Shown piece after piece: positions 5,296 through 50,630 of a DNA stretch of 64,000 bases. Under the pieces are notes generated by a model. That model had not been told where the DNA came from. It searched no databases and saw only the letters and a list, made by a program, of their open reading frames with translations. Positions within the stretch are counted from its first letter, which is position 1; every line of letters starts with the position of its first letter. The position numbers and the translations under genes were made by a program. This stretch comes from an uncultured Pelagibacteraceae bacterium (GTDB lineage Bacteria > Pseudomonadota > Alphaproteobacteria > Pelagibacterales > Pelagibacteraceae): positions 5,596 to 69,595 of the forward strand of contig CACHIV010000005.1 in assembly GCA_902579985.1 (NCBI GenBank). Reading direction: 5' to 3'.

Positions 5296-7577
5296 TTTTT
5301 TTTATAATCAATAACATCCGCTGAATATGCTGCGATTGACGCTAGGTTGATTATTTCGGAGGTAGATGATCTTAAAGGTGCTATCTCTATTGGTTGACCT
5401 AAACCAATTAGTAGTGGACCAATAACTTTTGTTTCACCCAAGGTTTTCATTAATTTATAAGAAATTGCAGCACTATGTTGTCCTGGCATTATCAATATAT
5501 TTGCATTACCTACGATTTCTGAAAAAGGATAAAGTTCTTTATATTCCTCATTAAGCGCTACATCAGGTTGCATGTCTCCATCAAATTTAAAATCTACATT
5601 TTTGTTTCTTAAAATTTCAACAGCTTTTTTAATATGTTTAGTTCTATTAGTAAGAGGTTGTCCAAAAGTCGAATGAGAAACAAAGGCAACTTTAGGAACA
5701 AATCCAAATAGTTTTGCTACTCTAGAAGAAGAAATTGCAATTTCTGCAAGTTGTTCAGAACTTGGGTATTCATGAACACTAGTATCACCAATAAATATAG
5801 TTCTTCCTTTATAAACAACTAAATTTAATCCAAACATTATCTCTCCTGGTCTAGGGTCTACAACTTGTTTGATTTTATCTAAAGATGCACCAAATCTTCT
5901 TGTATTTCCTGTAATAGCTCCATCAGCATCCCCACAAGCTACCATACAAGATGCCCAGATAACACGGTCATTTCTTACGAGTCTATCGCAATCTCTTTCT
6001 AAAAGACCTTGTTCTCTTTGCATTTTTTTAAATAGGTAATCAACGTATTTTTCTCGTTTTTTAGTATCTGTGGAATTTATAATTTCAATGCCAAAATGAT
6101 CACTGAAGCCAATCTTTTTTAATTGATCTTTAATTTTTTGTTTTTTACCAACTAATATAGGAGTTCCTAATTTTGAATTTTTAAATGCTATTGCAGCTTT
6201 TAAAGTATTTTCGTCTTCACCATCTGCAAAAACAATTTTTTTTTGATTTTTTTTAATATAAGAATTGATACCTTGCATTATTGCTAGAGACGGATTGAGT
6301 CTTTGTTTAAGTTGTTCTTTATATATTTCGAAATCATCGATATCTTTTCTTGCAACTCCAGTGTCCATAGCAGCTTTTGCTACAGCTGCTGGAATAATGC
6401 TCATCAATCTTGGATCAAAGGTTGAGGGTATAATATAATCTTTTCCATAATGAGGTCTTTCCCCTCCCATAGCAGCAACCACTTCATCTGGCACGTCTTC
6501 TCTTGTTAGTTTTGCTATAGCTTTAGCTGCAGCTATTTTCATTTCTTCATTAATTGTTTTTGCTCTCACATCCAGAGCACCTCTAAAAACATATGGAAAT
6601 CCAATCAAATTATTCACTTGATTTGGGTAATCTGATCTTCCAGTTGCAATAATTGCATCATCTCTAACTTCATTTACTTCTTCAGGTTTAATTTCAGGAT
6701 CTGGGTTTGCACATGCAAAAATTATAGGATTTTTTGACATTTTTTTTACCATATTTTTTGTAAGAATGCCCTTTGCAGATAAACCTAAAAATACATCAGC
6801 CCCTTTGATTGCATCTTCTAAAGTTCTGAATTTTGTATCTACAGCATGAGTTGATTTCCATTGATTTAATTTTTTTCTTCCTCGATAGATAACACCTGAT
6901 CTATCAACCATAATTATATTTTTCTGTGGTACTCCACTATTTTTAAATAAGTTAGCACAAGACATTGCTGATGCACCTGCACCGTTTATAACAATCTTAA
7001 TTTTTTTTATTGATTTACGAGATATATCTAATGCATTAATTAATGCAGCTGTAGTGATAATTGCAGTCCCATGTTGATCATCATGAAAAACAGGAATATC
7101 CAAAATTTCTTTTAATTTATCTTCAATAATAAAACAATCAGGAGCTGCGATATCTTCTAAATTTATTCCACCAAAGCTACATGCAATACTTTTTATGGTA
7201 TTGATAATTTCATCTGTATCTTTAGAATCTATTTCTAAATCAATAGAATCTATATCAGCAAATCTTTTGAATAGAATTGCTTTTCCTTCCATAACTGGTT
7301 TTGAGGCAAGTGCTCCTAAATTTCCCATTCCAAGGATAGCGGATCCATTACTTACTACAGCAACCAAATTTCCTTTCGAAGTATAATCAAAAGCAGTGTC
7401 TGGATTTACAGAAATAGCTTTAACAGGAGCTGCTACTCCAGGAGAATAAGCTAATGCCAAATCTCTTTTTGTAGTCATTGGTTTTGAAGAATTAATCTCA
7501 ATTTTTCCAGGTTTACCTTTAATATGGAAATCCAAGGCTTCCTTGTCGGTATAATGATCTATTTTAGTTTTTTTCAT
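5292..7577 (-). CDS. maeB: NADP-dependent malic enzyme with C-terminal phosphotransacetylase-like domain
   Basis: LALAYSPGVA, KPVMEGKA, FHDDQHGTAI and TGRSDYPNQVNN motifs; C-terminal FADGED and FDGDMQPD PTA-like region; 761 aa. Confidence 0.96.
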   Translation of the reverse strand: MKKTKIDHYTDKEALDFHIKGKPGKIEINSSKPMTTKRDLALAYSPGVAAPVKAISVNPDTAFDYTSKGNLVAVVSNGSAILGMGNLGALASKPVMEGKAILFKRFADIDSIDLEIDSKDTDEIINTIKSIACSFGGINLEDIAAPDCFIIEDKLKEILDIPVFHDDQHGTAIITTAALINALDISRKSIKKIKIVINGAGASAMSCANLFKNSGVPQKNIIMVDRSGVIYRGRKKLNQWKSTHAVDTKFRTLEDAIKGADVFLGLSAKGILTKNMVKKMSKNPIIFACANPDPEIKPEEVNEVRDDAIIATGRSDYPNQVNNLIGFPYVFRGALDVRAKTINEEMKIAAAKAIAKLTREDVPDEVVAAMGGERPHYGKDYIIPSTFDPRLMSIIPAAVAKAAMDTGVARKDIDDFEIYKEQLKQRLNPSLAIMQGINSYIKKNQKKIVFADGEDENTLKAAIAFKNSKLGTPILVGKKQKIKDQLKKIGFSDHFGIEIINSTDTKKREKYVDYLFKKMQREQGLLERDCDRLVRNDRVIWASCMVACGDADGAITGNTRRFGASLDKIKQVVDPRPGEIMFGLNLVVYKGRTIFIGDTSVHEYPSSEQLAEIAISSSRVAKLFGFVPKVAFVSHSTFGQPLTNRTKHIKKAVEILRNKNVDFKFDGDMQPDVALNEEYKELYPFSEIVGNANILIMPGQHSAAISYKLMKTLGETKVIGPLLIGLGQPIEIAPLRSSTSEIINLASIAAYSADVIDYKKN

Positions 7578-47616: not shown

Positions 47617-47701
47617 GGGCGAATGGCGGAACTGGTAGACGCGCACGACTCAAAATCGTGTTTTGCAAGAAGTGAGAGTTCGATTCTCTCTTCGCCCACC
47701 A
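47617..47701 (+). tRNA. tRNA-Leu (CAA)
   Basis: GGGCGAA/TTCGCCC acceptor stem, CACGA-CTCAAAA-TCGTG anticodon arm, long variable arm, GAGAG-TTCGATT-CTCTC T arm, encoded ACCA; 85 nt. Confidence 0.97.
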
Positions 47702-47707
47702 ATTATT

Positions 47708-49411
47708 ATGCAAGTAGATAAAATTAATAATTTATTAGAATTGTTTTATGAACAATACAAAAAACAAAATTCAGAAAATTTTTTTTTAGAATCTTTAAAA
47801 GATCCTAGAAAAAAATATACATGGAGAGAAGTTTATAAAAATACTATTAAATTATCTGAAGAAATATCTAAATATATTGAGAAAGGAGACAGATGTTTAT
47901 TGATCTCTGAAAATAGACCAGAATGGATGATATCAGACCTTTCGATTATGTTGTCAAAAGGAATAACCGTTCCAGCTTACACAACATATACTGAAAGAGA
48001 TTATGAGTATATTATTAACGATTGTACTCCAACAATTATTATAGTCTCAGATAAAGTTCAGTATGACAAGATAAAAGAAATAATTCCTAAAAAAGACTTT
48101 ATAAAAAAAATTATCTCCTTTGAAAATTTAAATGACAACGAGGACAAATCTATTTTAAAAATAGATGACATTTTTATAAAACAAAATTATTCAGAGGAGT
48201 TATTTGATAAATTAGAAATAAAAAGAAAAGATGTTGCATGTATTATTTATACCTCCGGTACTGAAGGAAATCCAAAAGGAGTAATGTTAAGTCACGGAGG
48301 AATACTTAATAATTGTGAAGGCGCTCAAAATTTATTAAAAACATTTATATCGGAAAGACCTAAATTTTTAACATGGTTACCACTTTCACATTCGTACGAG
48401 CACACAGTTCAATTTGTCCAAATAATTGTAGCCGCCAGAGTTTATTATGCAGAGAGTATAGATAAATTGATTAAGAATATGAACGATTGTTCCCCTGAAA
48501 TTATGACAGCTGTACCACGATTTTATCAAAATTTATATCAAAAAATTAATTCAACATTTAGTAAGGCAATAGGATTAAAAAAAATATTATTAAATCAAAC
48601 AGTTAATTTAGGAAAAAAAAAATTAAATAAAAACAATTTTTCTTTTTTGGAAAATATTATCAATATAATTTGTGATAAATTAGTAAGAAAAAAAATCAAA
48701 CAACAATTTGGTGGATCATTAAAGGCATTTGTCTCAGGTGGAGGTGCTTTAGATAAAGAAGTAGGTTCTTTCTTAAATGCAATTGGTTTACCTACCCTTC
48801 AAGGATATGGGTTAACAGAAACTTCTCCAGTAGTAAGTTGTAATTTTATAGAGAATATTAGAGTAGAAACAGTTGGTAAACCTTTTGAAGGTAATCTTGT
48901 AAAAATTGCTGATGACGGAGAAATATTAGTTAAAGGTGAAAATGTCATGCTAGGATATTGGAAAAATCAAGAAGAAACAAATAAAGTTTTAAAAGATGGC
49001 TGGCTTTATACTGGTGATATAGGAGAATTTGATGAAGGTTATTTGAAGATAACAGACAGAAAAAAAGATATTATAATAACACCTGGAGGAGATAATATTT
49101 CACCAATTAAAATTGAAAATGATTTAAATAAAATAAATTTTGTTGAACAAAGTTTAGTTTATGGTGATAATAAACAATACTTAATTTGTTTAATAGTATT
49201 AAGTTCAGAATATAAAAATTCTTCTAAAGACGAAATTCAAAAAGAAATAGAAAAAATAAATAAAAATTTATCTAAGATAGAAAAAATAAAAAAATTTATC
49301 GTAATTAAAGATCAATTTACAATTGAAAATGGTTTGATGACACCAACTTTAAAATTAAAAAGGTATAAAATAATAAATAAATATAAATTAGAAATTGAAA
49401 AACTTTATTAA
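47708..49411 (+). CDS. Long-chain-fatty-acid--CoA ligase (AMP-dependent)
   Basis: IIYTSGTEGNPKGVMLSH, QGYGLTETSP, GWLYTGDIG and ITDRKKD motifs. ATG at 47708; the track's start overlaps the tRNA. Confidence 0.93.
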   Translation: MQVDKINNLLELFYEQYKKQNSENFFLESLKDPRKKYTWREVYKNTIKLSEEISKYIEKGDRCLLISENRPEWMISDLSIMLSKGITVPAYTTYTERDYEYIINDCTPTIIIVSDKVQYDKIKEIIPKKDFIKKIISFENLNDNEDKSILKIDDIFIKQNYSEELFDKLEIKRKDVACIIYTSGTEGNPKGVMLSHGGILNNCEGAQNLLKTFISERPKFLTWLPLSHSYEHTVQFVQIIVAARVYYAESIDKLIKNMNDCSPEIMTAVPRFYQNLYQKINSTFSKAIGLKKILLNQTVNLGKKKLNKNNFSFLENIINIICDKLVRKKIKQQFGGSLKAFVSGGGALDKEVGSFLNAIGLPTLQGYGLTETSPVVSCNFIENIRVETVGKPFEGNLVKIADDGEILVKGENVMLGYWKNQEETNKVLKDGWLYTGDIGEFDEGYLKITDRKKDIIITPGGDNISPIKIENDLNKINFVEQSLVYGDNKQYLICLIVLSSEYKNSSKDEIQKEIEKINKNLSKIEKIKKFIVIKDQFTIENGLMTPTLKLKRYKIINKYKLEIEKLY

Positions 49412-49531
49412 CTTTAATTATTAAAAATAGATTATTATGCCCGTAAACTCTAACTTTTTTTACTTATAAAAAAAAATTTACTAATTTTTTTTTTAAAAGA
49501 AAAACAAAAAAAAAGTTGTTTAATTAAATAT

Positions 49532-49560
49532 TTGACATCACCTACATAAAAAAATAAAAA
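49532..49560 (+). promoter_or_regulatory. Putative sigma70 promoter of the basic mini-gene
   Basis: TTGACA(49532-37)-N17-TAAAAA; the -10 lacks the -7 T, which is common in alphaproteobacterial promoters. Confidence 0.6.
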
Positions 49561-49569
49561 TAAGTTAAT

Positions 49570-49590
49570 AACGAATCATTTTGATTCGTT
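49570..49590. repeat. Inverted repeat carrying two GANTC sites
   Basis: aacgaatca-ttt-tgattcgtt (perfect 9-bp arms), extendable by aagtta/taactt across a 2-nt bulge. Confidence 0.85.
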
Positions 49591-49612
49591 TAACTTAAAC
49601 AGGGAGCTAAAG

Positions 49613-49681
49613 ATGGCTAAAAGAAGAAAAAAAGCTAAAAAGAAAGCTAAGAAAAAAGCTAAAAAAAGAAGAAGAAGATAA
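49613..49681 (+). CDS. Unannotated 22-aa ultra-basic protamine/histone-H1-like peptide MAKRRKKAKKKAKKKAKKRRRR
   Basis: SD AGGGAG at 49601-06, ATG at 49613, TAA at 49679-81; has its own promoter and a polar terminator. Confidence 0.8.
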   Translation: MAKRRKKAKKKAKKKAKKRRRR

Positions 49682-49700
49682 TTTTTTAACATTCTTCATT

Positions 49701-49743
49701 AAAAACGCTTCTCATAACTTTAGTGTGAGAGGCGTTTTTTTTT
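49701..49743 (+). terminator. Intrinsic terminator ending the mini-gene transcript (may also serve the convergent carD)
   Basis: aaaaacgcttctcata-actttag-tgtgagaggcgttttt: 16-bp stem with two G.U pairs, T9 tail at 49735-43. Confidence 0.85.
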
Positions 49744-49748
49744 AATTT

Positions 49749-50630
49749 TTAATCTTCTGGATTAGTAATCTGTTCAGGCTCTGATATTTCTGGTTGTATA
49801 TTTTTAGCAGGAGTTACAACGTTTTTTTCTTGGGTAACTTGTTGATTTCTTTTTAAAGCTTTATCCAATTTTTTTTGAGTATTCTCTGATGAGATTCCTA
49901 ATATTATTTGAAATTCTGATAATATCCTCTCATAGGCTTTTTCAAAAAGTTGTCTTTCGCTGTAAGATTGATCTACCATTAGATCATCTCCTTTGTTTAG
50001 ATCTCTTACCACTTCTGCAAGTTCATAAATTTTACCTGAAGAAATTTTTGCTTCATATTCTTGTGCTCTTCTACTCCACATCGATCTTTTGATTTTTGGT
50101 TTGCTTTTTAAAATAGATATACACTTAGTTACCTGATTAATTGTTGCCAGCGGTCTAAGATGGGATTGTTTATTTACTGGAACCATTCCACTAGCTTTAT
50201 CTTTTTCAAATTTAAGAACGTAGGTTTCTACATCAATTCCACCAATATTTATTTTCTTAAATTCAGTAATTTGACCAACTCCATGTTTTGGATAAACTAC
50301 ATAGTCTTTTATTTTATATATTTTCTTTTCTGTTTCTTGTTTTTTTACTTTTTTAATTTCAGGCTTAATTTCATTATTTTTTGAAATTCTTAAGTTATTA
50401 TTTTTTGTATCTATTTTTTGTGTAACAGAATTCTTATTAGCATTTTTTGAATTTTTTTTAGTAATAGATAATTTAGATTTAGACTTAAGAAGTTTTTTTT
50501 TGACTGCTTTAATTTTCGTTTTTTTTCTAGAATTCGAATTAGTCTTTTTTTTTACTGTTTTCTTTTTCTTTTTAAAGATTTTCGTTAAAATATTTTTCGT
50601 ACTTATTTTCTTCATTTTTATGTTCTTCAT
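49749..50630 (-). CDS. carD: CarD family RNA-polymerase-binding regulator with a ~100-aa Lys-rich N-terminal extension
   Basis: [28 protein letters not shown] and [12 protein letters not shown] motifs; follows fdxA. Start is 50630 or 50615. Confidence 0.93.

Follow-up and report, generated by a model that had tools for sequence, protein, structure and literature searches.

A conserved lysine- and arginine-rich mini-gene beside carD in SAR11 bacteria and its predicted control by the rhtB RNA motif

We examined the 337-bp spacer (49412-49748) that lies between an acyl-CoA ligase open reading frame (ORF) ending at 49411 and the carD gene (49749-50630, minus strand) in a 64,000-nucleotide stretch of an uncultured Pelagibacteraceae genome of 1.16 Mb and 27.6% G+C (assembly GCA_902579985.1, contig CACHIV010000005.1, forward-strand positions 5,596 to 69,595; this stretch is referred to below as the window). 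The spacer holds a candidate mini-gene for a 22-residue peptide made almost entirely of Lys, Arg and Ala, and the initiation site of this ORF mirrors the loop of the rhtB RNA motif (Rfam RF01814). A first-pass annotation had read the spacer as a complete, stand-alone plus-strand unit composed of a promoter, a 5' inverted repeat, a Shine-Dalgarno (SD) sequence, the ORF and a terminator polarised for a plus-strand transcript. Each of these features is present exactly where it had been placed, and the conservation of promoter, 5' stem-loop, SD, ORF and terminator described below upholds the unit as a whole.

The unit is headed by a sigma-70-type promoter (49532-49561, plus strand), located by a consensus scan, with the -35 hexamer TTGACA at 49532-49537, a 17-nt spacer and the -10 element TAAAAA(T) at 49555-49561; transcription is predicted to start near 49567. 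A promoter-like match of this kind is by itself not above the count in shuffled sequence and was weighed instead by its near-invariance across 49 orthologues from the window's genus, in which TTGACAT and the AAAAAAATAAAAAT -10 block are at least 90% conserved. The predicted mRNA then opens with a 5'-terminal stem-loop (49570-49590, plus strand; arms AACGAATCA/TGATTCGTT, 9 bp, 3-nt loop ttt, fold of -8.5 kcal/mol), which is near-invariant in the 49-sequence alignment of this genus (Pelagibacter, g1). In genus g8 the arms read CGAATC/GATTTG, and since the resulting G.U pair is possible solely in plus-strand RNA, the stem-loop appears to be an RNA-level feature. A DNA-level or protein-binding role is also possible, because within the window's genus the arms are invariant rather than covarying; we infer a role as an mRNA stabiliser or as a protein site. 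The GAATC and GATTC on the two arms match GANTC, the CcrM methylation motif of alphaproteobacteria.

The SD sequence AGGGAG (49601-49606) stands 6 nt upstream of the ATG at 49613. The translation initiation region GGGAGCTAAAGATGG (49602-49616, plus strand), which spans the SD, the 6-nt spacer, the AUG and the first base of codon 2, is 100% invariant in the 49 orthologues. The 22-codon ORF (49613-49681, plus strand, with TAA at 49679-49681) encodes MAKRRKKAKKKAKKKAKKRRRR, which has 11 Lys, 6 Arg and 4 Ala and a net charge of about +17; Ala is always encoded by GCT and Arg always by AGA. It is followed by an intrinsic terminator (49701-49748, plus strand) that consists of a 16-pair hairpin at 49701-49739 and a T9 tract, and that also lies 3' of the carD stop codon on the minus strand.

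The polarity of this terminator is clear from three sides: the hairpin folds at -20.0 kcal/mol on the plus strand versus -13.8 kcal/mol on the minus strand; among 84 distinct orthologous loci the plus strand is the more stable in 75 and a T-run of at least six is present in 82; and the stem undergoes G.U to A-U exchanges across orthologues that are valid solely in plus-strand RNA. In the 49-sequence alignment, the -35 TTGACAT, the -10 block, the 5' stem-loop, AGGGAGCTAAAGATG (100%) and the terminator stand out as conserved over a variable background. Judged from this pattern, 49567-49748 is best explained as a monocistronic gene: the -35 of its promoter is a strong consensus match, the SD that follows the 5' stem-loop is strong too, and the 22-codon ORF runs into a terminator of the intrinsic type.

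Conservation was assessed by a blastn search of 49520-49750 against 60 relatives, and further genera were reached by anchoring on CarD. Within the window's genus the whole unit recurs in 28 genomes, with 76-89% sequence identity and an intact ORF of 21-30 amino acids downstream of an invariant GGGAGCTAAAG-ATG in 28 of the 28 copies. All six genera of the family other than the window's own carry the ORF beside and convergent to carD, at lengths of 21-58 amino acids, and in genus g8 it is intact in all 31 copies. The sister SAR11 family has a form of 76-100 amino acids beside carD (MEELKVIFAKARKKAKKKAAPKK...RRKKRR). This long form (L073-L079) begins MEELKVIFAKA and overlaps an open +1 frame of about 80 amino acids on the same strand, rich in Leu, Lys, Arg and Gln, which may be why gene callers fail there or choose the wrong frame. 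Weak blastn matches in the sister family (query positions 116-164) proved to be lysine-rich coding stretches and were rejected as orthologues, the real relatives having come through CarD anchoring. No comparable ORF was found beside carD in 29 other alphaproteobacterial families; at the carD-adjacent position, as far as these comparisons reach, the gene is specific to the SAR11 order (Pelagibacterales).

Within the family we counted 92 intact loci with 64 distinct ORFs from seven genera, in 17 different lengths between 20 and 58 amino acids. The 64 distinct ORFs are composed of 54% Lys, 23% Arg, 18% Ala, 3% Thr and 2% Pro, and contain no acidic, aromatic or large hydrophobic residues. A head of the form M-A/P-K-R/K-R-K-K and an Arg-rich tail are fixed, and the stop codon always comes immediately 3' of the Arg run. 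The ORFs contain repeat units (AKKK, AKK, TKKK, AAPKKKK) whose number is polymorphic, giving products from 20 to about 100 amino acids, with all length changes among orthologues in frame. The first-pass annotation had proposed a test for a conserved SD and frame with substitutions confined to Lys, Arg and Ala: the SD and ATG are invariant in the 28 same-genus copies and the indels keep the frame, and the composition goes beyond these residues in admitting some Thr and Pro. Frameshifts or premature stops under a preserved RNA structure, which it had named as the mark of a small RNA, were looked for as well, and just one of 93 loci is frameshifted.

Codon usage argues in the same direction. Arg persists at codon 4 under three codons (AGA, CGA and CGT), and Ala likewise occurs as GCT, GCA and GCG. 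AAG makes up 26% of Lys codons in the ORF family versus 11% genome-wide, and GCT 77% of Ala codons versus 44%. The longest A-run in the ORFs averages 7.2 (maximum 9), compared with 9.0 after permutation of the Lys codons and 9.7 at genome usage, and in none of 200 permutations were A-runs as low as observed. The ubiquitous GCT at Ala in the window ORF can thus be put down to a choice of AAG and GCT that caps poly-A runs. A scan of all six frames of the 1.16-Mb genome returned this ORF as the sole ATG-started one of 15-100 codons with at least 70% Lys plus Arg, and five genomes simulated with a third-order Markov model yielded none. These alignments and codon patterns show that selection maintains a protein-coding frame here in the whole SAR11 order, acting on composition and not on exact sequence or length; the predicted product is a polycation in which Lys, Arg and Ala are joined by a little Thr and Pro.

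The ORF had been thought invisible to standard gene callers, and this holds: 18 variants of 22-89 amino acids are all without an exact match among about 15 billion predicted proteins. A known family to which the peptide might belong was also sought. Neither the 22-residue form nor relatives of 31-85 amino acids match Pfam or NCBIfam at E values up to 10, nor do they match the Hc1 (PF07432) and Hc2 (PF07382) profiles; phmmer against PDB chains gave no match at E values up to 10. A homologous-protein search with an 85-residue form returned three matches, all low-complexity sequence, which were discarded. We found no SAR11 polybasic small protein in the literature. A list of empty intergenic regions of strain HTCC1062 includes a 356-nt gap of 23.6% G+C at 410316-410671 (Meyer et al. 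2009, PMC2704228). This gap comes one gene after a tRNA-Leu gap, and the window has the order tRNA-Leu, ligase, gap; the HTCC1062 gap is probably the orthologue of the spacer studied here, passed over because of its low G+C.

The feature that the first-pass annotation missed is the relation of the initiation site to RF01814. The rhtB motif was described as a bulged hairpin with about 1,250 metagenomic copies, for which no target or function was proposed (Meyer et al. 2009, PMC2704228). Within the spacer it gives the best Rfam match, which lies on the minus strand and whose 30.2 bits fall short of the gathering score of 55. The match is carried wholly by the family loop, the outer stem GAUAGUCC/GGACUAUC being deleted in the alignment, and we rejected the window locus as a member of the family, given its score and its lack of an outer stem; it is instead a predicted target. 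The remaining Rfam matches in the spacer (ctRNA_pT181, rliE, PyrR, L20 leader and others) are far below threshold and sit on the terminator hairpin or the A-rich ORF, a generic likeness to terminators.

The true RF01814 element of this genome lies on another contig (G000:C1:146368-146450, 78.6 bits), together with an extended -10 promoter of its own and a palindrome of the TAATGCATTA type; on one side an msrB-like gene ends, and on the other lies a gene resembling DUF2805/TIGR03643. RF01814 scores above cut-off solely in the window's genus. The same distribution is seen with the 14-mer GGGAGCTAAAGATG, which takes in the SD-AUG spacer and is present in exactly two copies in most genomes of this genus: it is retained exactly in 195 of 301 genomes scanned, all of the window's genus and usually in two copies, and it was found neither in a reversed control nor in other genera of the order.

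In the window's genus, the 15-nt GGGAGCTAAAGATGG is the reverse complement of the 13-nt RF01814 loop plus two stem bases. The 13-nt loop forms 13 bp with GGGAGCUAAAGAU at -21.6 kcal/mol, and with the inner stem included the predicted uninterrupted duplex reaches 15 bp for the hairpin of this genome and 19 bp for the genus consensus. In cofolding, the heteroduplex has an advantage of 19-22 kcal/mol (ΔΔG of -19 to -22). When the rhtB loop was scanned for trans targets against 93,068 genome windows, the mini-ORF initiation site ranked first genome-wide, at -31.7 kcal/mol versus -26.6 for the next site (mean -7.2, standard deviation 3.4). The second-ranked site (C9:26526) was set aside, as it falls within a coding region and not at a start site.

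The strand on which rhtB is transcribed bears directly on whether such pairing could occur. The 39 elements that we collected share an invariant loop and show covariation in the stem (CCTT/AAGG, CCA/TGG, CCTA/TAGG). The Rfam strand gives the more stable fold in all 39; a T-run of at least five follows the hairpin in 12 of 39 on the Rfam strand and in none of 39 on the other. An extended -10 (TGnTAnnnT) is found 6-7 nt 5' of the first stem base in 37 of the 39, on the Rfam strand only, with a TAATGCAT palindrome upstream of it. Tiny ORFs on the SD-sense strand show no conservation across the 39 elements (MAK*, MAR*, MAKKDY...). Promoter, T-run and G.U evidence favour transcription of the hairpin antisense to the SD sequence. 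On the 3' side of the hairpin, usually after U7-9, comes the start of a LysE-family ORF (MLPLDF..., PF01810); this gene is absent from the present assembly, which retains the promoter and the hairpin. The rhtB hairpin would be transcribed from its own extended -10, either at the head of the mRNA for a LysE-family exporter or by itself, as an orphan small RNA.

We collected both loci from 50 genomes and compared them. The base preceding the ATG is G at both loci in 46 genomes and A at both in 4 (G252, G274, G301 and G329), with no discordant genome. In G219 (GAGAG) and G066 (CCAGGAG) the loop of the hairpin RNA carries C-to-U changes that keep G.U pairing with an unchanged SD, and G146 has lost one G at both loci. 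Genus g8 served as a control: using its own initiation sequence, we found no second copy or partner hairpin, and its SD-AUG spacer occurs in five variants among 31 species. As g8, without the hairpin, varies here, the added constraint on the spacer in the window's genus coincides with the presence of the hairpin, and the invariance of the spacer is therefore probably an RNA-RNA constraint. That the SD-AUG region mirrors and co-varies with the RF01814 loop points to control at the RNA level.

We favour, with a probability of roughly 0.6, the reading that the mini-gene encodes a translated, nucleic-acid-binding polycation that resembles a histone H1 tail and whose translation is repressed by the rhtB RNA. 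To go by its composition, the product would be an intrinsically disordered polycation, or one that becomes helical on binding, and would bind a polyanion non-specifically, most likely DNA and/or RNA. It may be the free-standing equivalent of a lysine-alanine tail of the histone H1, Hc2 or AlgP type, acting as a nucleoid counter-ion or an RNA chaperone rather than as a structurally fixed ribosomal protein. The rhtB loop, in the form of a short terminated transcript or of an exporter leader, would pair with the SD and AUG over 13-19 bp (about -20 kcal/mol), block 30S binding and so repress synthesis of the peptide; the alternative direction, in which an abundant mini-mRNA acts on the exporter leader, is also conceivable. 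Hfq was not detected in the genome by tblastn or by a search for the YKHAIS motif, a result that is compatible with long pairing through an exposed loop and that would allow for a role as an RNA chaperone. Three genes of the HU/IHF type are present in the genome (G000).

Several observations weigh against the favoured reading, or narrow it. On the protein side, the openness of the ORF by itself proves little, because A-rich DNA leaves the +1 frame open too, and in-frame indels are expected even without selection, as the repeat units are 9 and 12 nt long. The one frameshifted orthologue (G123; L115, G123:C1:11641-11954) has A6 for A7 after codon 5 and continues in the shifted frame (MPKKRKKLLKKL...), which could reflect a homopolymer assembly error, a pseudogene or slippage. 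We infer the target of the peptide purely from its composition. On the RNA side, control by rhtB would be a genus-level addition and not what the gene is there for, because the gene predates the hairpin and persists in all other SAR11 genera, which lack it. The four A/A genomes stand among G/G genomes within a single clade of 10 genomes in a CarD tree of weak resolution, in which G252 and G329 are sisters and the placement of G274 and G301 is unresolved, so the covariation may come down to one to three events. A G-to-C change in codon 2 (Ala to Pro), seen in 25 of the 50 genomes, lies opposite the inner stem and is uncompensated in the hairpin; in three genomes the loop is one G shorter with an unchanged SD; and concerted evolution of two short paralogous segments could mimic covariation.

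The closest parallel to the favoured reading comes from chlamydiae, in which the small RNA IhtA pairs at the start of an mRNA and represses HctA, a repression that was shown experimentally (PMC3469542, PMC4355289, PMC8343073). As with HctA (Hc1)/DdbA and IhtA, a small, very basic, lysine-rich protein of the DNA-binding type would be under start-site control by a small RNA, and in the chlamydial system IhtA by itself links the basic-protein genes. As in the IhtA-hctA pair, the rhtB loop is an exposed loop complementary to the SD and AUG of its predicted target. The two systems differ in that there is no sequence homology and in that HctA has about 125 residues with a folded N-terminal part, whereas the SAR11 peptide is a pure Lys/Arg/Ala chain of 20-30 residues. 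Moreover, unlike that of IhtA, the SAR11 pairing is predicted from complementarity and covariation, and the partner RNA doubles as the mRNA leader of a LysE-family exporter.

Tails built of Lys/Ala/Pro repeats are found in Hc2/HctB, AlgP, Bordetella BpH1/BpH2, the C-terminus of mycobacterial HupB and the C-terminal domain of eukaryotic H1. The SAR11 family resembles them in its AKKK, AKKA and AAPKK repeats, its length polymorphism by repeat slippage and its extreme positive charge, and the longer forms (genus g7 and the sister family) have AAPKKKK/PAKKK units as H1-type tails do. It differs from H1-type proteins in that it consists of nothing but the tail and lacks a folded domain, and in that the short forms lack Pro.

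A second group of very small basic proteins is ribosomal: eL41, bTHX, bS22/mS38 and bL37 have 22-33 residues with more than 60% Lys plus Arg, are easily missed by gene callers, and are fixed in length and sequence within a lineage. The SAR11 peptide could be an unrecognised ultra-short ribosomal or ribosome-associated protein of this kind, which would occupy a groove of the rRNA and be produced in step with ribosomes. The 20-30-residue forms are similar to these proteins in size, charge and Lys-plus-Arg share; the SD and promoter are strong, a streamlined genome has conserved the gene, conservation is also seen in the head MAKRRKK and the Arg tail, and tblastn found neither uL30 nor bL28 in this 95%-complete genome. 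We nevertheless regard this as unlikely. Through gain and loss of repeats, some with Pro units, the length ranges from 20 to 58 residues in the family and to about 100 in the sister family, a five-fold variation that sets the SAR11 peptide apart from eL41, bTHX, bS22 and bL37 and that misfits a peptide built into a fixed rRNA pocket. In addition, the peptide has no Pfam, NCBIfam or PDB sequence match and its gene is not in a ribosomal operon, and bL36, bL34, bL35, bL33, bL32, bL31 and bS21 are all present in the genome. The repeat-driven length variation and the Pro units are the reason why we favour a binder of the H1-tail, Hc2 or AlgP type over a fixed ribosomal peptide.

Similarly improbable, in our estimate, is that the initiation site and the rhtB loop agree without any RNA-RNA pairing, either as short paralogues that gene conversion keeps similar or because one protein or the ribosome binds both in the same sense. 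The two segments are identical and not just complementary, which formally allows either strand relation; a single event may lie behind the covariation, and the codon-2 change is uncompensated; and in most genomes the two strands of the hairpin differ by only 0.6-2 kcal/mol. Against this stand the conserved extended -10 at a fixed distance and the T-runs, both on the Rfam strand only, as well as G.U pairs of the inner and outer stem that would be A.C on the opposite strand. In G219 and G066 the loop has changed in exactly the wobble-keeping C-to-U manner, and a tract of 15-19 nt is short for recombination. Further instances of the initiation sequence were sought among viral contigs, where the 15-mer GGGAGCTAAAGATGG had 45 matches, none of them a mini-ORF or an rhtB hairpin, a count that we judge consistent with chance for a collection of that size. 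Five IMG/VR contigs (L240, L241, L265, L271 and L272; 33-35% G+C) share the gene start ATAATAGGGAGCTAAAGATGGCAATT (MAILRGGRRIGPFD...), which equals the mini-ORF initiation site over 18 nt, probably by coincidence.

We give considerably less credence to the idea that the peptide is incidental and that the locus makes a regulatory RNA, in which the Lys/Arg ORF senses Lys/Arg supply by translation speed and controls the LysE-family exporter in trans. In most genomes the partner hairpin is the 5' leader of a LysE-type translocator, followed by U7-9 and an AUG, the ORF is 77% Lys plus Arg, and the pairing could compete with a terminator-like hairpin. A related and equally doubtful proposal is that the mini-ORF and the exporter leader hairpin form a split, trans-acting amino-acid sensor, with the peptide doubling as a nitrogen-rich polycation sink. 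The speed at which the ribosome clears the Lys/Arg codons would decide whether the ribosome binding site of the mini-mRNA pairs with the exporter leader, and pairing would alter termination or translation of the exporter; such a device, if it exists, would divide attenuation logic over two unlinked transcripts. A sensor is hard to reconcile with the conservation of the ORF in all the SAR11 genera that lack the hairpin, and with the present genome, which has no exporter gene yet retains both partners. The expansion to about 100 residues with conserved composition points to a functional product, and pairing beyond the loop is not conserved.

Least probable is a chance ORF in an A-rich spacer or an untranslated non-coding small RNA, for although AAA/AGA-rich DNA translates into Lys and Arg in a genome of 27.6% G+C, the ORF is unique in the genome and absent from simulations, and 92 intact orthologues, which come in at least 17 different lengths, have a fixed SD, start codon and stop codon and show synonymous Arg and Ala changes together with A-run capping.

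Two observations concern the genes on either side of the spacer. A tRNA-Leu(CAA) gene at 47617-47701 (plus strand) overlaps the listed TTG start (47663) of the 582-residue acyl-CoA ligase ORF, and the true ligase start is therefore downstream of 47701 (near MQVDKINNLLE). The CarD encoded in the window has a lysine-rich N-terminal extension of about 100 amino acids; K-rich N-terminal extensions are also found on CarD homologues of at least two unrelated alphaproteobacterial families (L140, L141).

No bacterial lineage in the ocean is more abundant than SAR11, which also has some of the most streamlined genomes known. A gene that is kept in every genus examined and yet is unannotated is therefore a real gap in the SAR11 parts list. 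Should the favoured reading be correct, the Lys/Arg/Ala peptide of 20-30 residues would be the smallest H1-tail-like or protamine-like protein described in bacteria, and one that would escape tryptic proteomics. What is new here is the complementarity, and the apparent covariation, of the RF01814 loop with the mini-ORF initiation site. This link offers a candidate target and mechanism for a motif whose function has been unknown since 2009, and it would add a predicted trans-acting RNA control circuit to a lineage with little known regulation, in a genome without detected Hfq.

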